From the NCBI GenBank assembly GCA_044070495.1, contig JBIPSI010000015.1, forward strand, positions 1 to 64,000: a DNA stretch of 64,000 bases, in the 5' to 3' direction. This document shows, piece by piece, positions 274 to 60,133 of this stretch (within the stretch, counting starts at the first letter, position 1; every line of letters starts with the position of its first letter). The translations under genes were made by a program, and so were the position numbers. The notes beneath the pieces are model-generated. The model searched no databases, was not told where the DNA came from, and worked only from the letters and a program-made list of their open reading frames with translations. The DNA is from Spirulina sp. (GTDB lineage: Bacteria > Cyanobacteriota > Cyanobacteriia > Phormidesmidales > Phormidesmidaceae).

Positions 274-615
274 ATGCCCGACGAACTCCCCATCATCCAG
301 AAAACCTACGACCTGATTAAGTGGATGGTGCCCATCATCGACCGCCTACCCAAGACCCATCGCTTTACCCTGGGCAACCGCATCACCGAAGAACTCTACA
401 ATTTGCTCGATGGCCTCATCACCGCCCGCTACGCCCGGTCTGGCAAACTATCCGCCCTGCAAGCCCTGAACACTCGCCTACAGGTGCTGCGCTACCAGTG
501 CCGCCTGCTGCTAGACTTTCAGCTTATTTCCATCAAGCGCTACGAATATGCCCATCGACAAATCGATGACATCGGCAAAGACTTGGGTGGATGGATCAAA
601 CAGCAAACCGCATGA
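274..615 (+). CDS. avd: DGR accessory variability determinant (Avd, four-helix bundle)
   Basis: 113-aa basic helical protein ([11 protein letters not shown]...[12 protein letters not shown]...IGKDLGGW). Its stop overlaps the RT start (ATGA 612-615). Confidence 0.92.
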
Positions 616-1748
616 AACGTTTTGGTAACCTTTGGCCCCAAATTATCGACTTTCAAAATTTGTGGCAGGCCGCCCGACAGGCCCAACGGGGCAAGCGCTT
701 TCGGCCCAATGTATTGGCCTTTAATCATCAGCTAGAGCAAAATCTGCTCCAGCTACAGCACGAACTACAAACCAAAACCTACCAACCTGGGGAATACCAT
801 ACCTTCGAGATTACCGACCCCAAGCCCCGGCTTATCTCCGCTGCGCCCTATCGAGACCGGGTGATTCACCATGCCCTGTGTAATGTGATTGTGCCCCTCA
901 TCGAGCGGTCATTTATCGACGACTCCTATGCCAATCGGATTGGGCGTGGCACCCATCGGGCCTTAAAACGAGCCGTTCACTTCGCCGGTTCGAGCCGCTA
1001 TGTGTTGCAGTGCGATGTTCAAAAATATTTCCCCAGTCTGGATCACAGCATTCTTAAAGCTCAGCTTAGGCAACGCATCAAATGCCGCGATACCCTCTGG
1101 CTGATCGACACCATCATCGACAACAGCAACCCCCAAACCAGCGCATTGACCTACTTCCCTGGCGATACGCTACTGACCCCCCTTGAACGCAGGGCAGGGC
1201 TACCCATCGGCAACCTCACCAGTCAGTTCTTTGCCAACGTCTACCTCAACGGGTTAGACCACTTCATCAAAGAGCAACTCCACATCCGCAAATACCTGCG
1301 CTATGTCGATGACTTTTTGCTGTTTGCAGAAGACCGGCAGCAACTCGTGGATGCCCGTGCTGCCATCAACACCTATCTGACCGAGCTACGGCTAAACCTG
1401 CACCCAGCTAAAACCCAGCTCTTTGAAACCCAGCATGGCCTTAACTTTGTTGGGTTTCGCCTTATGCCTATAGCTGGTGCCTACCCCCGCGAAGTTTATA
1501 TCCGCGTCCGCAACGACAACCTACAACGGGCCAGAAGGCGCTGCAAATACCTCCAGCAAGCGTATGCCAGCGGCGCTATCGACCTAAAACCCCTAGTACA
1601 ACGCTTACAAAGCTGGGAAGCCCACCTGATGCATGGCGATACCCACCGACTGCGACGGCGGATCTTTGACGAGTTGATCTTCCATCGAGAGGAGGCCGAA
1701 GGCAATCATCAGGAGACAGCAGCCAGGAGGTCAGAAAAGCCTGGTTGA
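612..1748 (+). CDS. DGR reverse transcriptase
   Basis: RT motifs [29 protein letters not shown] (DGR-type SQ motif) and RYVDD. Start ATG 612 is coupled to avd. Confidence 0.95.
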
Positions 1749-1870
1749 CTGACAAAACTTGCCAGAACCCAGATCCGTCGAAGGGTCAGGAGACCTGACC
1801 CCTACATGACCCTAATACGGTAGGGGCGCGGTTTCCGCGCCCGGTGCAGAATCTTTTGTCAGTCAACCAG
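1741..1870. mobile_element. MITE/REPIN-like element with 17-bp TIRs and a REP doublet
   Basis: CTGGTTGACTGACAAAA (1741-1757) and TTTTGTCAGTCAACCAG (1854-1870) form a perfect inverted repeat. Flanks CAGAAAAGC and CAGAAAAAC match 8/9. Two GTAG-type hairpins lie inside. Confidence 0.75.
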
Positions 1871-1941
1871 CAGAAAAACTCATCTCCTCCTAACACCTAA
1901 TTTCTGATCTCCTATATTCTTGAAAAGGGACAGGCAGCCAA

Positions 1942-2063
1942 ACGCGGCGGCTCTTGGAACAATAATCCCAGGAATTGCCGTTCCGCGTGTCGCAACAACA
2001 ATAACCCCGGCGACCGCAACAACAATATCGGTTTTCGAGTTGTTTGCGAGGCCCCAGCACTCT
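1942..2063 (+). ncRNA. DGR template repeat (TR)
   Basis: 122-nt AAC/AAT-rich copy of 2995-3116; internal mismatches to VR occur only at TR adenines. Confidence 0.95.
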
Positions 2064-2230
2064 TCTGAGCCAGAGTCGGCAGGTGGGAATCTGCCGAGCG
2101 TGCCAGCGAAGAGTCCAGACCTGTTCCAGCGATGCCCCGGCATCCAAAGATAAAACAGAGCCAGGGGGCTTAGTAGGGCTAGCCCGAACCTTCGCCTGGC
2201 TCACCCCTCGTCAGAAGGGCCTTATCGGTT

Positions 2231-3118
2231 ATGCAAAATCAGACAGCTCAAGTCGATTCGGTAACGGATCAGGCCAGTCAGGAGCACCTCAGCGCTATCC
2301 GGCGACCCCGTCGGGCGCAGTGCTTCACCGAACCCGCCATCAACCTTGATCTGATGCTCATCCCCGGCGGCACCTTCACCATGGGCTCCCCCCCTGAGGA
2401 GCTAGGGCGTTGGGATTACGAAGGGCCACAGCACGAAGTATCAATCCGCCCATTTCTGATGGGGCGCTACCCCATTACCCAGGCGCAATGGAAAGCCATT
2501 GCCGTCCGTAAAGATCTCAAGGTCAATGTCGATCTTGAGCCAGACCCATCTCGCTTTAAGGGCGACCACCACCCGGTTGAGCAGGTGAACTGGCATGAAG
2601 CAATGGAATTTTGTGATCGCCTCTCTCGCCTCACCAGCCACACCTACCGCCTACCCACCGAAGCCGAATGGGAATATGCCTGCCGGGCAGGTACCGAAAC
2701 CCCCTTCCACTTTGGCGAAACCATCACCACCGACCTGGCCAACTATTGTGGTGAAGACAGTGAGCGTGATCCTGAAAACTATCCTGGCCACTATGGCCGA
2801 GGGCCAAAGGGAATTTATCGCCAGACCACGACCCCGGTCAACCACTTTCACCCTGTCGCCAATGTCTTTGGCCTTTGCGATATGCACGGCAATGTGTGGG
2901 AATGGTGCCTAGACCACTGGCACGATAATTACGACGGGGCACCCACCGATGGCAGCGATTGGTTAACTGGCGATAAAGACGCAGCACGAGTGATACGCGG
3001 CGGCTCTTGGGACTATAGTCCCAGGAATTGCCGTTCCGCGTGTCGCTACTTCGATAACCCCGGCGTCCGCAACTACGGTATCGGTTTTCGAGTTGTTTGC
3101 GAGGCCCCAGGACTCTAA
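2231..3118 (+). CDS. DGR target protein, FGE-sulfatase (SUMF1-like, C-type lectin fold) domain
   Basis: Motifs IPGGTFTMGS, YPITQAQW, RLPTEAEWEYACRAG, DMHGNVWEWC and RGGSW...GFRVVC; the 3' end is the VR. Confidence 0.93.
   Translation: MQNQTAQVDSVTDQASQEHLSAIRRPRRAQCFTEPAINLDLMLIPGGTFTMGSPPEELGRWDYEGPQHEVSIRPFLMGRYPITQAQWKAIAVRKDLKVNVDLEPDPSRFKGDHHPVEQVNWHEAMEFCDRLSRLTSHTYRLPTEAEWEYACRAGTETPFHFGETITTDLANYCGEDSERDPENYPGHYGRGPKGIYRQTTTPVNHFHPVANVFGLCDMHGNVWEWCLDHWHDNYDGAPTDGSDWLTGDKDAARVIRGGSWDYSPRNCRSACRYFDNPGVRNYGIGFRVVCEAPGL
2995..3116 (+). repeat. DGR variable repeat (VR) with 3' IMH
   Basis: Aligns ungapped to TR with 11 A-to-N substitutions and one C/G difference near the 3' end. Confidence 0.95.
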
Positions 3119-3503: not shown

Positions 3504-3546
3504 ATGCCAGGAGGCGGGCTTGAACCGCCGACACGAGGATTTTCAG
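3504..3546 (-). repeat. att site (duplicated 3' half of tRNA-Phe)
   Basis: ATGCCAGGAGGCGGGCTTGAACCGCCGACACGAGGATTTTCAG, identical to 12769-12811. Confidence 0.95.
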
Positions 3547-3574
3547 CCCTTCTGGTATTAAGTATTTTTGAACT

Positions 3575-7611: not shown

Positions 7612-8001
7612 ATGAATAAGGGGCTGTGGGCATTGCTGGGGCTGATGGGCCTGGGCCTGGTGGGAATCGTGATTGAGGGGGGGGCTCACCCTCGGATTAC
7701 TACGATTGAGATGACTGGAGCAACGCCTTTATCAACACGCGAGCTGCAAATAACCTGTGCTCGGTTGCGAGCCGTCACGCTGTTCGATGTACCCGTTTCG
7801 ATATGGGATCTTGGCTCTACCCCTGGGAAATGCGCTGGAGTTGAAGATGAGGACGTTCTACCATTCCCGATCATGGGGCGAATCTTGCCGGACTGTCAGC
7901 ACCAGGGAGAGGGCCGCTACACCTGCCCCCCCAGTCGCGACCTTGAAAACTATTGGCGCTCTGAGAACAATTTGCCGTACATTCCACCAGAGACCCCATA
8001 A
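7612..8001 (+). CDS. Membrane-anchored/exported hypothetical protein
   Basis: N-terminal MNKGLWALLGLMGLGLVGIVI hydrophobic segment and four Cys residues. Confidence 0.65.
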   Translation: MNKGLWALLGLMGLGLVGIVIEGGAHPRITTIEMTGATPLSTRELQITCARLRAVTLFDVPVSIWDLGSTPGKCAGVEDEDVLPFPIMGRILPDCQHQGEGRYTCPPSRDLENYWRSENNLPYIPPETP

Positions 8002-8009
8002 AAAACCCC

Positions 8010-8055
8010 AACACAACAAAGCCCCCAGGCCATGGCCTGGGGGCTTTGTTGTGTT
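8010..8055. terminator. Perfect 46-bp palindrome, probable bidirectional terminator
   Basis: AACACAACAAAGCCCCCAGGCC-AT-GGCCTGGGGGCTTTGTTGTGTT between convergent genes. Confidence 0.75.
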
Positions 8056-8065
8056 TTGGGCTGGG

Positions 8066-8416
8066 CTAGTCGTCCTGGGCTTCCTGGTCTGCGAGCTGCT
8101 GGAGCTGCCTCAGGTTTTCCAGTTGTTTTTCATATTTCTCCTCAGCCCTTTGATACAAAGCGATGCACTCCCGTGCTTCGCTCAACTGGTCTTCCACCTG
8201 GGAGATCAGTTGAGCGACGATTCCCCCAAAGAGGCTGTTAGGCCCACCTCCCCACGCCCCAACCTCTCTAGCAACTCTGCCACAGAGATACTCAGGCTCT
8301 CCGCCGCTGTCTCCAGGCCGTCCTTGGCTGATGGTGTGACCCTCGCCCGAACCCAGGCCGTTTTTAGTTCCCCGTACTTCCCGTGCTCTGTCTTTGGTCT
8401 TCCCATGGCTTGTCAT
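8066..8416 (-). CDS. ORF with C-terminal coiled coil, overlapping the RHH gene in the -1 frame
   Basis: GGGGAG ribosome-binding site 6 nt before ATG 8416; the C-terminus GGIVAQLISQVEDQL...QLQQL has heptad character. Confidence 0.55.
   Translation of the reverse strand: MTSHGKTKDRAREVRGTKNGLGSGEGHTISQGRPGDSGGEPEYLCGRVAREVGAWGGGPNSLFGGIVAQLISQVEDQLSEARECIALYQRAEEKYEKQLENLRQLQQLADQEAQDD
8206..8406 (-). CDS. Ribbon-helix-helix (CopG-like) regulator
   Basis: MGRPK start, then a strand-helix-helix pattern (VRARVTPSAKDGLETAAESLSISVAELLERL); divergent from the replication operon. Confidence 0.65.
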   Translation of the reverse strand: MGRPKTEHGKYGELKTAWVRARVTPSAKDGLETAAESLSISVAELLERLGRGEVGLTASLGESSLN

Positions 8417-8429
8417 AGATAACTCCCCT

Positions 8430-8506
8430 AGATTGTATCCCTAATCGAAATGACAGATTACTGCAACAATCTTAGCCTCTCACTCACATTTGGGATACAA
8501 TCTTAG
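8430..8506. promoter_or_regulatory. Divergent promoter/operator region
   Basis: 12-bp inverted repeat AGATTGTATCCC (8430-8441) / GGGATACAATCT (8492-8503), each arm containing a TACAAT -10 box. A third ACAATCTTAG lies at 8466-8475. Confidence 0.6.
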
Positions 8507-8558
8507 GCGTAACAGATACCTCTGAGAGCGTGCCGGGTTAATCTCCCCCGGCTTTCTT

Positions 8559-8628
8559 GGGCGGCAGGGATGGTGTGGGGACAGCCTAGGGCACCACATC
8601 GCGGGTTCGACTCCCGCAACGCCCACCA
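8559..8628 (+). ncRNA. tRNA-like RNA (T-arm, acceptor stem, CCA; no canonical D/anticodon arms)
   Basis: T-arm GCGGG-TTCGACT-CCCGC (8601-8617); 5' GGGCG pairs with CGCCC (8620-8624), followed by A-CCA. Confidence 0.6.
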
Positions 8629-8647
8629 AACTCTCTAGGAGATACCC

Positions 8648-9133
8648 ATGGCCACATCACTAGAACGAATGGAAGACGACGTACAGGCAATGATCGACGG
8701 CATGGTTAAAGAGGCTCTATCCCGACTGGATCATCAAATCGTCTTGATAGATGACCGCGCCAAACTGCTTGAGCGAATCGAGAAGATTGAGCAGTTCATT
8801 ACCAACCTGGGGCCACTGGCCAAACTCTCCGAGCGTCTGGCCGAGTGTGAAAGACTGCTGACCTGCTGGAGCCTCGACACTGAGAAGAACGAGGCAAATG
8901 TAGAGGCGCTCATCAGCGAAACCAAGCTTATTAGCAAGCGCATCGAAGGGCTGGAGAACTTCGCCGAGCAACAAGCATTGAAAAATGCTGAGATCGTGGC
9001 CCAGCGAGACACCCTAGACGAGCAGGCCGAAATGTTGCTGTACCTAGAAGGCCGGATCGACACCATCCGTAACCACATCGCCGAGCCACCCGCCGAAACC
9101 GCCGCCATGGCCCTGTACGGAGGTGAACAGTAA
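8648..9133 (+). CDS. Coiled-coil hypothetical protein
   Basis: 161-aa Glu/Leu-rich helical ORF with an AGGAG ribosome-binding site. Confidence 0.8.
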   Translation: MATSLERMEDDVQAMIDGMVKEALSRLDHQIVLIDDRAKLLERIEKIEQFITNLGPLAKLSERLAECERLLTCWSLDTEKNEANVEALISETKLISKRIEGLENFAEQQALKNAEIVAQRDTLDEQAEMLLYLEGRIDTIRNHIAEPPAETAAMALYGGEQ

Positions 9134-9339
9134 TGACTGCTTTATATGGCCACACCACCACCCCCCAAGAACGATTACTCAGCGAGATTTTGCAACGGGC
9201 CGCACGGCTACCGCTAAAGGATTTGACATTCCTTTGCGAGACTGCCAACGCCCTGTATGAAAAGCGCATTGAAGCTGAGATGCGCGTGGCGGAATTTGCC
9301 ACCCAACAGCCCCCAGAACCAGACCCCCACGGGGTTTGA
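9133..9339 (+). CDS. Small hypothetical protein
   Basis: 68-aa ORF with a GGAGG ribosome-binding site and TAATG coupling. Confidence 0.7.
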   Translation: MTALYGHTTTPQERLLSEILQRAARLPLKDLTFLCETANALYEKRIEAEMRVAEFATQQPPEPDPHGV

Positions 9340-9350
9340 TTGCCCATTTC

Positions 9351-9377
9351 AAAAGAGCCTACCGAGGCTCTTTTTTT
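9351..9377 (+). terminator. Intrinsic terminator directly upstream of the replicase gene
   Basis: AAAAGAGCCT-ACCG-AGGCTCTTTTTTT. Confidence 0.75.
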
Positions 9378-9398
9378 GTTGTTTATTAAGGAAATCTA

Positions 9399-11699
9399 AT
9401 GGTTTTCAATATTGCTGAACACATCGAATTTGATGCCAAGGGCCGCGCCGCCTGCCCTAGTTGCGCCCTGGAGGGGAAAGCCAAAAACAAAAATTTGAGC
9501 TTGCTAGAAACTGGGGCATACAAATGCTTTAGGGGCTGTACTCCGAAGCAAATCAGGGAAGCCATGGGGGCGGGGCCAGTGCAGACGGTTCCACCGCCGC
9601 CAACCACCACCAAGGCGGCTAAGGCGACCGTCACCCCGCAAAAGGTAAAAGAGGCTACCGAGCGCCTGCTAAACCAGAGCACCCACGCCCTACGCTGGCT
9701 GACAGACCGGGGCATTTCCTCGGAGATGATCGAGCACTACCGCCTGGGCGTGGGGCGGCTGAAGGTGACGCACGAGGGGAAATCGGGCTACGTGCCCAGC
9801 ATCATCGTGCCGATTCCTACCGCAGACCGCACCGCCTATTACCAAAAGAAGCGCACCGCCCCCTGGGTGAAGGGCGACGAACGGCCCGACCATTGGCCCA
9901 CCTGGAGCCAGTACGGCATCCCCCAGATGGTGCTCACCACCCATCAGCCAGAAAGCCCTACTCAGACGTGGCTGTGTGAGGGGGAATGGGACGCGATCAT
10001 GCTGGGCTGGGCTGTACGTCATTCGAGCCTAAAAAATGACGTACAGGTCTCATGCTTCACCTGTGGGGCGGGGAATGTGCCCCCAGAAACCGAGCTGGCC
10101 AGACTAAAGGGGGATGTCATCACTTGGTATGACCGGGACGAAGCCGGGGCCAAGGGGGCGCATAAAGTGCAAGCCCGGTTAACCGAGCGCTGCAAGGTAG
10201 CCACCGTTCCCGCCGTCGATGCCCCTACCGGGTGGGATGTTTCTGACGCGATCAACGCGGGGCTATTCGAGCAATTCGCCGCCGCCGTCGTCGAGGCCGC
10301 GCCCTGGGAACCGCCCAAGCAGGATAATCCCCTCCGTGAGCGCCTGGTGAGTAACGATGACATGATCGCCCGCGCTGCCGACTACACCGACTGGCTAGTT
10401 GAAGACATTTTGACCACGGATGAGCTGTTTTTGTTGGCGGCCTCGCCCAGGGCCGGGAAGTCACTGCTTGCCCTCACCCTCACCCAGGCGGTGGCCACCG
10501 GAGGAAAATTCTTGGGCAGGCCCGTGGCCCAGGGCGCGGTGCTGTATATCCGCTGTGAGGATAGCGAATCCAAAACCAAGGAAAGGCAGCTCAAACAGGG
10601 CTGGGGTGAAGGCTTGCCCGTCTACTGGCTAGACCGCTTCAAACTGAGTGAGCTGAACCACCTAGAGCACCTGGTAGAGGAACTGAACATCAGTCTAGTG
10701 GTGTTCGACACCCTCAGCCGGGTAAGGGATGCCAACATCAGCGAATCATCCGCCGAAATGTCCCAGCTCCTAGAACCGCTTCAGGAGATGTGCAAGCGCC
10801 AACGGTGTTGCGGCATCCTGGTGCACCACACGGGCAAGGTGAGCACCGACAACGCAGGAACCATCAGCGTTTTCGACACCATCCGGGGCAGTAGCGCTAT
10901 CCGGGCCACCTGCCGGGGCGTGCTCATCCTCGCCGCTGACGACCGCTCCTATCGGCTGTACGTGGAAAACGGCTGGGGCAAGCTCGATCTACAAGTGCTG
11001 CTCGATGCCCACACCTTGCAATGGCGGTTGATCGGCAACTGGGTAGGGCCAAACGTGGATCTACCCCAGAAAGACCGGGTGTTGAATTACTTGGGCCAAG
11101 TGGGCAAAGCCACGATTGACCAGATTTCAGAGGCCACAAACCTGCCGAAACGCTCTCTATACGAGGTTTTGAAGCGTTTGCAGGCCGACGAGATGATCGA
11201 AAAGCACGGCTCAAGGCAAGCGTCAATTTACGTTAAGAGCGCAATTCAACAGATTCAACAGTTGAATAGCCTGTTGAATTGCCAGGATACAGACAGAGAG
11301 ATAATTTCAGCCTCTATTCAACAACTTCCTGAGAGTGCCTCACCCCCGGAAAAAGTGATCATCGAACCTGAAAGTGATCAAAAAAATGATCACTTTCCTG
11401 ATTCAACACCTACCCCCCACACCCAGGAAACTGTTGACAAATCCGCCCAAAACCAGGCACAGCAAGGCCTTTGGGATTCAACAGCAATTCAACACGATTC
11501 AACAACCCATTCAACAGGGCATTCAACAGGCACTATCCCCCCTGGGTTTGCAGTCGGTTGCATCGTGGGCAAGGCTGGTAAATTCGGCTGGCGGGGCAAG
11601 CTGACGGGCACCTTTAGCACCATGGCCCTGGTGCATTGGCATGGCGACCCCAAGGACTCCCCAGTGAGCTGGAATGAGCTAGAGGTACTGGAGGGATGA
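9399..11699 (+). CDS. Primase-helicase (Zn finger, TOPRIM, RepA/AAA_25 helicase, wHTH)
   Basis: CPSC...CFRGC; LCEGEWDAI and WYDRD; Walker A ASPRAGKS; Walker B LVVFD; VHHTGK and RGSSAI; HTH TIDQISEATNLPKRSLYEVLKRL. Confidence 0.88.
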   Translation: MVFNIAEHIEFDAKGRAACPSCALEGKAKNKNLSLLETGAYKCFRGCTPKQIREAMGAGPVQTVPPPPTTTKAAKATVTPQKVKEATERLLNQSTHALRWLTDRGISSEMIEHYRLGVGRLKVTHEGKSGYVPSIIVPIPTADRTAYYQKKRTAPWVKGDERPDHWPTWSQYGIPQMVLTTHQPESPTQTWLCEGEWDAIMLGWAVRHSSLKNDVQVSCFTCGAGNVPPETELARLKGDVITWYDRDEAGAKGAHKVQARLTERCKVATVPAVDAPTGWDVSDAINAGLFEQFAAAVVEAAPWEPPKQDNPLRERLVSNDDMIARAADYTDWLVEDILTTDELFLLAASPRAGKSLLALTLTQAVATGGKFLGRPVAQGAVLYIRCEDSESKTKERQLKQGWGEGLPVYWLDRFKLSELNHLEHLVEELNISLVVFDTLSRVRDANISESSAEMSQLLEPLQEMCKRQRCCGILVHHTGKVSTDNAGTISVFDTIRGSSAIRATCRGVLILAADDRSYRLYVENGWGKLDLQVLLDAHTLQWRLIGNWVGPNVDLPQKDRVLNYLGQVGKATIDQISEATNLPKRSLYEVLKRLQADEMIEKHGSRQASIYVKSAIQQIQQLNSLLNCQDTDREIISASIQQLPESASPPEKVIIEPESDQKNDHFPDSTPTPHTQETVDKSAQNQAQQGLWDSTAIQHDSTTHSTGHSTGTIPPGFAVGCIVGKAGKFGWRGKLTGTFSTMALVHWHGDPKDSPVSWNELEVLEG
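11244..11528. repeat. Iteron-like ATTCAACA cluster, putative replication origin
   Basis: Nine direct copies plus an inverted copy, and three AAAGTGATCA motifs. Confidence 0.7.
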
Positions 11700-12598
11700 A
11701 CCGCGCCGTATCCCTTCGGAGGTGGGTGAAGCTGTGGCAGCTCTATGCCGGATTCCGGCAAGGGCAGATCGCCCCCTCCACCTACCGAAGGGATTACCTG
11801 AAAATTGAGCGCAGACTGAAGAAACTGAAAAAAGACGCCCCCCACCTGGGGAACGCCATCGCCGTTAGGGATTATCTGATCGAGCACTACGCCGCCGATA
11901 CGGCCCGTAGGACGCTCCAACAACTCAACGCCTGTGGGAAGTGGGCCATGGAATCAGAGCTGGTTAAATCGAACCCCTGGGAAGGCATCCAGAAACACAT
12001 CAAGCGGCCACCCCCAGGGCCAGACAACTGGGCCGCCTTCACCGCCAAAGAGCGCGATCACATCATCGCCGCCTTCGAGGCGCGACACCCCCACCTAGCC
12101 CCATGGCCCAAATTCTTGTTCTGGACAGGTTGCAGGCCAGAGGAGGCCGCCGCCCTGCGGTGGGAGCATATCGCCGCCGACTACTCCGAAATCCAGTTTC
12201 GAGAGGCGCGGCCTGTGGATGTGGGAATCACCCAGGCCACCAAAAACCATCGGGTAACCCGCTTCCCCTGCAATGCCAGATTGCAAAAACTGCTGCAATC
12301 CCTCGCAGACGGCGGCGAAAATGACCGTAGCAGTTGGGTGCTGAAAGGCCCAAAGGGTGGGCCTTTCAGCTATCAAAATTTCCAGTCCCGCTACTGGCGA
12401 CCGCTGGTGCAAGACCTGGTGCAGAGCGGAGCCGTGGCCATTGAGCTAAGCCAATATCATTGCCGCCACACCTGGATCACCTTGGCCCTGGATCACCTAC
12501 CCCCCCAAGATGTGAGCTACCTGGCCCGGGTGAGCGTAGATGTGATCTACCGCCACTATGTTGGTCGGAACCGGGTGATCGTCATCCCAGAATTTTGA
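11696..12598 (+). CDS. Tyrosine recombinase/integrase
   Basis: FWTGCRPEEAAALRW, TKN, YHCRHTWIT and IYRHY motifs; adjacent to the att/tRNA. Confidence 0.9.
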   Translation: MNRAVSLRRWVKLWQLYAGFRQGQIAPSTYRRDYLKIERRLKKLKKDAPHLGNAIAVRDYLIEHYAADTARRTLQQLNACGKWAMESELVKSNPWEGIQKHIKRPPPGPDNWAAFTAKERDHIIAAFEARHPHLAPWPKFLFWTGCRPEEAAALRWEHIAADYSEIQFREARPVDVGITQATKNHRVTRFPCNARLQKLLQSLADGGENDRSSWVLKGPKGGPFSYQNFQSRYWRPLVQDLVQSGAVAIELSQYHCRHTWITLALDHLPPQDVSYLARVSVDVIYRHYVGRNRVIVIPEF

Positions 12599-12769
12599 CC
12601 GTGGACTAAGTCTGGACTAGCGGCCACAACTGGCACACAGCAAAACCCCCCGATCTAACCTTCCCCCAGGCCCTCAAAACCTGATTCCCTCGTTGAGTAG
12701 TTGCGTCACCATGCAACCAATCGTTACCCGGAATTTGGGAAAATCCGACAGGCGTAGGGGCTAGAATGA

Positions 12770-12842
<73 letters not shown>

Positions 12843-59104: not shown

Positions 59105-60133
59105 ATGGTTCAAGAACGGACATTACCCCAGTTTCAGGCTCCAGCGGCTTCTATCTCTAGCGAGGAAGGGCTGAGGCTGTACGAAGACATGATTTTGGGT
59201 CGCTTCTTTGAAGACAAGTGCGCCGAAATGTACTATCGGGGCAAAATGTTTGGGTTTGTCCACCTCTATAACGGCCAGGAAGCGGTGTCCAGCGGGGTGA
59301 TCAAGTCCATGCGCCCCGACGACTACGTGTGCAGCACCTACCGCGACCACGTCCACGCCCTCAGTGCCGGGGTGCCCGCCCAGAATGTGATGGCCGAACT
59401 GTTCGGTAAGGAAACGGGCTGTAGCCGGGGCCGGGGTGGTTCCATGCACTTATTTTCTGGGGAACACAACTTGCTGGGGGGCTTTGCCTTCATCGGCGAA
59501 GGGATTCCCGTCGCCCTAGGAGCCGCCTTCCAAACCCACTACCGCCGCGTCGCCCTAGGGGATGCCAGTGCCGACCAAGTCACCGCCTGCTTCTTTGGCG
59601 ATGGCACCACCAACAACGGCCAATTTTTTGAATGCTTGAACATGGCGGCGCTGTGGAAGCTGCCGATTCTATTCGTGGTGGAAAACAACAAATGGGCGAT
59701 TGGCATGGCCCACGAACGCGCCACCTCCCAGCCGGAAATCTACAAAAAAGCCTCGGTGTTTGGAATGCCCGGATATGAAGTAGACGGCATGGATGTGATG
59801 GCGGTGCGCTCCATTGCCCAAGAAGCCGTGGCCCGTGCCCGCGCTGGCGAAGGCCCCACCCTGATCGAAGCTCTCACCTACCGCTTCCGGGGGCACTCCC
59901 TCGCCGACCCCGACGAACTGCGCTCCAAGGCCGAAAAAGAAGAATGGCTGGCCCGCGACCCCATCAAGCGCTTTGAAGCCTACCTGCTAGAGCAAAACCT
60001 CGCCGACGAAGCCACCCTAAAAGGCGTACGGAATCGCATCCAAACCACCATCGACGACGCCCTCACCTTTGCCGAAGAAAGCCCCGAACCCAGCCCCGAC
60101 GATCTGTACAAGTACATCTTCGCCGACAGCTAA
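59105..60133 (+). CDS. pdhA: Pyruvate dehydrogenase E1 alpha
   Basis: [20 protein letters not shown] motif and YRFRGHS. Confidence 0.96.

Follow-up and report, generated by a model that had tools for sequence, protein, structure and literature searches.

A CCA-ending tRNA-like RNA in the early leader of a cyanobacterial integrative element, a candidate cis-acting processing cassette

Transfer RNA (tRNA) mimics that do not decode, such as the mascRNA of MALAT1 and the TMER of MHV68, form an RNase P/RNase Z module of a longer transcript; these are eukaryotic nuclear or viral RNAs, and their CCA is added after the cut. Earlier work is said to include that of Hanic-Joyce et al. in 1990 on t-elements, that of Hartmann et al. 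in 1995 on C4 RNA as an RNase P substrate, and that of Bothwell, Stark and Altman in 1976 on M3 RNA. According to the accessible part of Forner et al. 2007 (PMC1920247), plant mitochondrial t-elements are non-canonical tRNA-like folds in mRNA leaders or trailers; in leaders, those with a conserved GGTTCRANYCC arm direct cuts by RNase P and RNase Z, and a small stable by-product results, the cox1 t-element in its 5' leader measuring 74 nucleotides (nt). The available text of PMC11143913 lists phage M3 RNA and C4 RNA among the non-tRNA substrates that RNase P cleaves. Here we describe a 70-nt tRNA-like RNA, hereafter the mimic, in 64,000 nt of Spirulina sp. DNA (assembly GCA_044070495.1, contig JBIPSI010000015.1, positions 1 to 64,000; the window). 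It lies at positions 8559-8628 of the forward strand, in an early leader of a 9.2-kb integrative element, and may act in cis as a cassette for the host's tRNA-maturation enzymes.

By analogy, t-elements are the closest functional match to the mimic, which likewise has a non-canonical fold and a conserved T arm. They differ in that they are organellar, that their CCA-like letters are added and not encoded, and that their ends were mapped experimentally (PMC1920247, in its accessible part), whereas the mimic is known from sequence alone. The M3 RNA of phage phi80, in the available part of PMC11143913 a phage-induced small RNA that is not a tRNA and is an RNase P substrate, belongs to an enterobacterial host and is likened to the mimic by description only. 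Like the mimic as we propose it, the CI RNA of P4 and the C4 RNA of P1 and P7 are small RNAs cut by RNase P from the early or replication operon leader of a temperate element; unlike it, they pair in antisense with sites in the same leader and lack a consensus T arm, while the mimic has neither an Rfam C4 match nor a convincing target. P4 carries a primase-helicase and an integrase, as this element does. The tRNA-like domain of transfer-messenger RNA (tmRNA) shares with the mimic an acceptor stem, a T arm, an ACCA end and a reduced D region containing GG; the mimic differs in having no G3:U70 pair, no mRNA-like part and no significant Rfam match. A literature search of limited coverage found no such leader element described for a cyanobacterial or other integrative element.

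The mimic comprises the acceptor/T-arm top half of a tRNA and one substitute hairpin, and it has no anticodon. Its acceptor stem consists of five Watson-Crick pairs (8559-8563 with 8620-8624) in place of seven; 8564 and 8565 stand opposite A8619 and A8618, so that layer 6 is a G.A and layer 7 a C.A mismatch, and the seven-layer acceptor geometry is retained. A linker of 8 nt (8564-8571) leads into the hairpin, which occupies the position of the D and anticodon arms and has seven pairs, one of them G.U, and a 15-nt loop (8572-8578/8594-8600). The T arm (8601-8605/8613-8617, loop TTCGACT) has a 5-bp stem and satisfies the GTTCRANYC consensus, and A8625, as discriminator A73, is followed by an encoded CCA at 8626-8628. 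The minimum free energy (MFE) structure of the 70 nt computed by RNAfold is this same structure (-29.6 kcal/mol), and it persisted when the whole of 8509-8670 was folded. An earlier note on this DNA, the sequence-only reading, had claimed a perfect T arm, a 5-bp acceptor-like stem, a discriminator A, an encoded CCA and one long stem-loop replacing the D and anticodon arms; every one of these parts is present, the stem-loop in the MFE fold as well.

ARAGORN and Rfam scans, which that reading had suggested as checks, called no canonical tRNA gene or family at the mimic. ARAGORN found one tRNA in the window, a tRNA-Phe at 12770-12842, and no gene at the mimic; Rfam made no call there at gathering thresholds, and its tRNA model RF00005 did not match the mimic even at E <= 10. 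At that relaxed threshold the matches in 8300-8800 were tRNA-Sec (15 bits, E 4.2) and a 17-nt T-arm piece of tmRNA_permuted (10.5 bits, E 6.6), and no others. The latter bears on the idea of a tmRNA-type tRNA-like domain without the coding part, able to be charged or to bind SmpB. Such a domain would have the mimic's layout of acceptor, short GG linker, single helix, T arm and ACCA, and one family of the viral look-alikes described below weakly matches Rfam tmRNA (L077, 19.9 bits, E 2.4e-4). The mimic's own match is confined to its T-arm piece, however; pair 3:70 is G-C and not the G.U alanine identity pair, and the host has a tmRNA of its own on contig C31. We regard a tmRNA-type domain as very improbable.

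We scanned both strands of the 5,313,730-base genome with a descriptor consisting of a perfect 5-bp T stem, the loop TTCRANT and a 5-bp acceptor closing 0-2 nt later. It matched 19 places: the mimic and 18 tRNAs that ARAGORN also calls. When NCCA was required in addition, the mimic was the sole match in the genome. The mimic is not a chance motif, and the case against chance is made by motif content, not by fold energy. None of the host's 36 ARAGORN tRNA genes encodes CCA after the discriminator, and neither does its tmRNA gene; the CCA of the mimic is therefore not a habit of the host. Elsewhere in the genome, two tRNA-fMet-like 3' halves ending in ACCA (contig C7, ~175995 and ~176910, minus strand) and a tRNA-Leu-like 3' half with a T arm (contig C3, ~174292, plus strand) were left uncalled by ARAGORN and are probably intron-bearing.

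Diverged copies were recovered by aligning Logan contigs of four public DNA runs (X1-X4, of which X1 and X2 are one sample) to 8000-9400. The X4 contig (630 nt) aligns to 8057-8228 and to 8526-8635, the intervening 297 nt being of the same length and diverged; over 8526-8635 it carries 16 substitutions and 6 gap letters. Within the mimic, the differences listed amount to ten substitutions, with eight in the hairpin loop, plus the loss of 8574, 8576, 8593, 8596 and 8598-8599. The deleted U8574 and U8576 are the partners of the deleted A8598 and A8596, such that two base pairs are gone on both sides and a G/C helix is left. The T arm shows a single change among the differences listed, C8602>T, which turns a C-G into a U.G pair, and after 8635 X4 has a different ribosome-binding site and ATG.

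The X1/X2 contigs hold 8547-8565 exactly, that is, the 3' arm of the hairpin upstream of the mimic, the spacer UUUCUU and the acceptor 5' strand, which together form the proposed cleavage junction; the preceding letters differ. Past 8565 they have a different linker that still contains AGG, then a run of six G's forming an arm of the same layout, and a different loop. The open reading frame (ORF) named ORF68 follows 1261 nt further on in X1/X2, compared with 574 nt here. The three variants thus have in common the junction, a GG-containing linker (AGGG, AGGG and AGG) and a helix of varying sequence, and the T arm as well where it was seen; the hairpin loop is the least conserved part in the metagenome relatives. 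Because the downstream gene differs among relatives, the mimic appears to be conserved independently of cargo. As to structural conservation in related elements, the want of which the sequence-only reading would have counted against it, most related elements have no mimic and the few diverged copies keep its structure.

A search of the genome with a covariance model of the mimic gave tRNA-Val(UAC) as the best match other than itself (18.3 bits, E 1.3). The first five and last six acceptor letters of the two are identical, and the T arm and everything between differ. No other copy longer than 17 nt exists in the genome, the stretch shared with host tRNAs being limited to the 17-nt T arm. Judged from these likenesses, the mimic likely descended from a tRNA. 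It might then be a relic, in which a captured tRNA gene, perhaps a tRNA-Val, lost its D and anticodon arms and became a functionless passenger; the acceptor letters shared with tRNA-Val agree with this, as does the absence of the mimic from most relatives of the element. A relic accords less well with a hairpin kept through two-sided changes, with a junction and T arm kept in copies that are ~80% alike or less, or with an encoded CCA that is foreign to host tRNA genes. Nor did a match to a simply decayed tRNA gene emerge, an outcome that the earlier note had entertained: the tRNA model finds nothing and the T arm is unlike that of tRNA-Val. We consider a relic unlikely; the mimic is apparently a maintained feature.

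At a little short of an even chance, our preferred reading is that the mimic acts in cis as a tRNA-like processing cassette and that RNase P cuts it at 8558/8559. We favour it because what is kept is what bacterial RNase P reads: the stacked acceptor and T stems with the T loop, a G in position +1, and a U-rich leader whose -1 base is U, which bacterial RNase P prefers there. The earlier note had offered three functions, an immunity or antisense RNA, a processing signal and a decoy, and the processing signal fits the sequence best, cleavage itself being postulated. Transcription from the -10-like box would start at ~8508; RNase P would recognise the stacked acceptor and T arm and cut between U8558 and G8559, removing a 50-nt triphosphate leader together with its hairpin. 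Two outcomes are conceivable: firstly, C74 may block RNase Z at the discriminator, leaving the mimic on the message as a base-paired 5' cap; secondly, the CCA may mark a stop for 3' trimming, with release of a free RNA of ~70 nt with a CCA end, 19 nt before the start codon. With either outcome, the ORF161-ORF68(-primase) message would owe its 5' end, and hence its stability or translatability, to the cassette. For RNase Z, CCA is generally inhibitory, C74 most of all (PMC3161902, in its accessible part). The viral look-alikes end in A-C-N-A, with C74 kept and position 75 free, and, if akin to the mimic, would fit the RNase Z block.

The RNase P RNA of the host lies on contig C21 at 59374-59746 (L161, 253.6 bits). 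When this RNA is aligned to the Rfam model, the consensus segment around the L15 GGU falls in a gap of 4 nt, where alignment confidence is low. We take this gapped segment to be the CCA-binding GGU, and such a gap fits a host without encoded CCA. Several points weigh against a processing cassette. By the same alignment, the CCA is probably of no use to the host's RNase P. The acceptor is limited to five pairs with two mismatches, and the fold energy is ordinary for the G+C-rich composition (z = -0.97; 37 of 200 shuffles were as stable). The terminator-like hairpin that parts ORF68 from the primase gene leaves an effect on the replication genes not assured. All 45 related primase-helicase loci had no sense-strand T-arm motif upstream, indicating that the element family does without the mimic, and the mimic was absent from all other cyanobacterial genomes searched (173 of the order, 401 of the class). 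Finally, the comparison of copies covers two variant types by way of a difference table, with 87 further differences beyond those listed, and the placement of gaps in the G and C runs of the copies is partly the aligner's choice.

The position claimed for the mimic in the sequence-only reading, after a -10 box (8496-8501) and a hairpin (8532-8552) and ahead of the ribosome-binding site of the ORF at 8648, was confirmed; the 19 nt from its 3' end to the ATG include AGGAG. A perfect 12-bp inverted repeat (8430-8441/8492-8503) puts TACAAT on both strands, and since this gives the same -10 box on each, we infer a rightward promoter. A consensus promoter scan left 8496-8501 uncalled and found no -35 match. 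The leader hairpin folds at -12.5 kcal/mol, and 9 of 200 shuffles were as good. That the mimic lies in an early leader of the element held up, whereas the claim that the leader belongs to the replication operon did so in part: with a strong intrinsic-terminator-like hairpin and T run at 9351-9384, the leader demonstrably precedes ORF161 and ORF68 only, and the primase-helicase gene may need read-through or a promoter of its own. The MFE fold of the whole leader contains a long-range helix between 8530-8546 (including AUCUCC) and the Shine-Dalgarno region (8638-8648). We considered and rejected the idea that this helix buries the Shine-Dalgarno sequence until the cut: the flanks' complementarity of -21.1 kcal/mol was reached by 20 of 300 shuffles, which is not significant, and the helix is absent from five of six viral look-alike loci.

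Table 1. Coordinates of the mimic, of the surrounding element and of tRNA-like loci found elsewhere
Feature	Position	Strand	Basis and remarks
tRNA-like RNA (mimic)	8559..8628	+	read from sequence, fold, descriptor scan
Divergent control region, inverted repeat	8430..8503	.	sequence; putative promoter role
Rightward -10-like box TACAAT	8496..8501	+	sequence
Leader hairpin	8532..8552	+	6 GC-rich pairs, 9-nt loop containing AUCUCC; begins ~22 nt past the -10 box
U-rich spacer UUUCUU	8553..8558	+	its last U is at -1 relative to the proposed RNase P cut
Shine-Dalgarno AGGAG (8637-8641) and ATG of ORF161 (8648)	8637..8650	+	sequence
ORF116, leftward, divergent from the leader	8066..8416	-	ORF list
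ORF161, first gene after the leader, helical	8648..9133	+	ORF list, model
ORF68	9133..9339	+	ORF list; DNA conserved in runs X1-X4
Terminator-like hairpin, 10 pairs and T run	9351..9384	+	terminator scan; between ORF68 and the primase gene
Primase-helicase, 766 amino acids	9399..11699	+	AAA_25 9.9e-30, Toprim_2, DnaB_C; phrog_239 2.1e-42
Tyrosine integrase	11696..12598	+	phrog_1 1.3e-30; weak Phage_integrase match
attL, 47-nt copy of the tRNA-Phe 3' part, left end	3504..3550	-	direct repeat 98% identical to 12769-12815; exact 25-nt match
tRNA-Phe(GAA) including attR (12769-12815), right end	12769..12842	-	ARAGORN, Rfam, repeat
Six 39-nt acceptor/T-arm minihelices (L154)	contig C3 42541-42579, 53934-53972, 55842-55880, 56857-56895, 57660-57698, 58701-58739	-	genome search
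Viral look-alikes (examples)	L077:2488-2568, L143:2500-2565, L090:2488-2569	-, +, -	pattern

No Pfam or PHROG family was found in ORF116, ORF161 or ORF68, and their Atlas scores lay below 0.9, with models of low confidence. ORF161 has 4 relatives among 5.8 billion proteins and one weak match in 172 other genomes of the order. From its position alone, ORF116 may be guessed to be a repressor. Between 8010 and 8055, a perfect 23-bp palindrome with a T run on the minus strand has a bidirectional shape and is likely the terminator of the leftward ORF116.

The place of the mimic also recalls that of P4 CI: a leader before the primase-helicase gene of a small, integrase-bearing element, with an RNA of ~70 nt. 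It could accordingly be a trans-acting regulatory or immunity RNA of the P4 CI or P1/P7 C4 type, excised from plentiful transcripts of the leader, whose loop pairs with a target and shuts off early or replication genes. CI is an RNase P product, and so is C4 (PMC11143913, in the part available). The control region beside the mimic, strongly diverged in X4 over 297 nt, behaves as immunity regions do. The search for a partner tells against such an RNA. A search of 8300-8800 at E <= 10 did not return Rfam C4. Among pairings of the 15-nt loop with plus-strand RNA of the element, the strongest (-24.7 kcal/mol) lies within the collagen-like ORF, is interrupted by a large internal loop and was equalled by 2 of 40 shuffled loops; neither the leader nor any ribosome-binding site showed a conspicuous target of the loop or linker. 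In the X4 copy, substitutions have changed eight of the 15 positions of the loop, for which targets could co-vary. With no C4 match, no convincing target in the element and a poorly conserved loop, the antisense or immunity function offered by the earlier note found no support, and we think it quite unlikely.

In the remaining function that it had offered, the tRNA-shaped RNA would be a decoy or sponge for a tRNA-targeting nuclease, a CCA-adding or repair enzyme, EF-Tu or a modification enzyme, and would protect the element or a helper phage. A perfect T arm, A73 and CCA are what such a ligand would display, the missing anticodon would keep it from decoding, and the GG-containing linker kept in all three variants sits where the GG of a D loop would contact the T loop. 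Pfam and PHROG searches recognised no defence or counter-defence gene beside the mimic, and a decoy would not need to be sited 19 nt before a start codon. This, too, we find quite unlikely.

The host genome holds other tRNA top-half folds placed just upstream of genes. On contig C3, the six minihelices of the table are G.U variants whose 17-nt T arm is identical to that of the mimic. Each follows the stop codon of one ORF and ends ~30 nt short of the AGAGG..ATG that opens the next. Their host is a second mobile element, encoding ParB-like, RadC, DUF3560, LPD29, Dam-like methylase and Gp3-like RDF proteins, and no C3 minihelix was found in the 60 relatives searched. That two unrelated mobile elements carry such folds just upstream of genes favours a role at the RNA level in this host.

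A pattern made of the mimic's 5' letters and T loop matched 68 loci in IMG/VR (L077-L144). Of these, 52 form three recurrent non-tRNA families, a, b and c, of 36, 9 and 7 loci; six of the others overlap ARAGORN tRNAs, and the remaining 10 are miscellaneous. ARAGORN found no genes in nine of the look-alike loci. The look-alikes have an acceptor, a T arm and no anticodon arm; their likeness to the mimic in the patterned parts exists by construction, their middle parts are built differently, and they belong to other hosts. One locus per family was annotated. In each, the look-alike shares the strand of the rightward early genes and lies past a leftward CI-like repressor gene and ahead of a phrog_16858 gene; in L077 a gene for a Mu-type transposase comes after the latter. 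Families b and c have a GC hairpin a few bases upstream of the look-alike. The relatives of family a come from human fecal records; the 11 sequences compared are 89% alike and contain a single clean compensatory pair along with mismatching intermediates, which is uninformative as to covariation.

These loci invite a wider reading that we hold to be possible though doubtful: the mimic would belong to a broad uncatalogued class of anticodon-less tRNA mimics, cut by RNase P and lying before early or replication genes of temperate phages and integrative elements in unrelated bacteria, in which a conserved C74 would block RNase Z such that the mimic caps the message. The class would span cyanobacteria and the gut-associated Mu-like phages of IMG/VR, and the C3 minihelices would be a minimal form of the device; the same doubt attaches to all of this jointly.

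Should the mimic be cut as proposed, a cyanobacterial mobile element would be shaping its early message with tRNA-maturation enzymes of the host. The principle of tRNA-like processing has precedents in plant mitochondria, in a few enterobacterial phages and among eukaryotic long non-coding RNAs; for bacterial integrative elements it is uncatalogued, and it is not in Rfam. An encoded CCA in a host whose tRNA genes have none offers a direct test of the effect of C74 on 3' processing in vivo, and cyanobacterial genetics would gain in the mimic a compact, portable part for RNA processing. A mere relic would be a minor curiosity.

With 45 related primase-helicase loci, the element family is common, and neither BLAST nor tblastn revealed any resemblance between these loci and the leader, ORF116, ORF161 or ORF68. 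A single-sequence covariance model run over 46 loci gave nothing credible (its top match, at 16.1 bits and E 0.28, lacks a T arm). Exact 35-nt and 26-nt 3' parts of the mimic had no match in IMG/VR or the JGI metagenomes, and in IMG/VR neither the 19-nt junction nor ORF68 as bait returned anything. A pattern allowing one mismatch matched 18 of 173 genomes of the order, mostly in coding-like places and never with an acceptor 3' strand or CCA, and 7 of 401 genomes of the class, none of them a relative. BLAST of 8420-9400 against the same 173 genomes yielded two short matches at chance level. Two candidates were rejected: a minihelix-like hairpin at L020 is the end of a leftward helix-turn-helix gene, and the JGI metagenome locus L145, found with a junction and T-loop pattern, is a terminator followed by an unrelated palindrome and contains no mimic. 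Five of the eight places matched in the class, in five genomes, resemble intron-bearing tRNA. Loci L072, L073, L146 and L150-L152, from other cyanobacteria, have a conserved tRNA-like stretch with an insert before the T arm and acceptor/D-arm letters upstream.

The 9.2-kb element is bounded by the 47-nt tRNA-Phe direct repeats. As tRNA 3' halves are the usual targets of integration and the element itself uses tRNA-Phe, the mimic might be an attachment-site scar or a site acting at the DNA level, such as an attB decoy or an origin. The repeat of the element is of different sequence and on the other strand, however (3504-3550 and 12769-12815), and the mimic has both acceptor strands and, as noted, no second copy beyond 17 nt in the genome; we find a scar or DNA-level site barely credible.

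The element further encodes a collagen-repeat protein, an FHA protein and several small ORFs, including one with a weak HTH_17 match. Relatives of genes in the window occur in Leptolyngbya, Nodosilinea and allied genera. Outside the element, 591-3118 is a diversity-generating retroelement with a reverse transcriptase (phrog_1423, 2e-125) and a target protein of the FGE-sulfatase fold; its template and variable repeats, each of 122 nt (1942-2063 and 2995-3116), are 90% alike.

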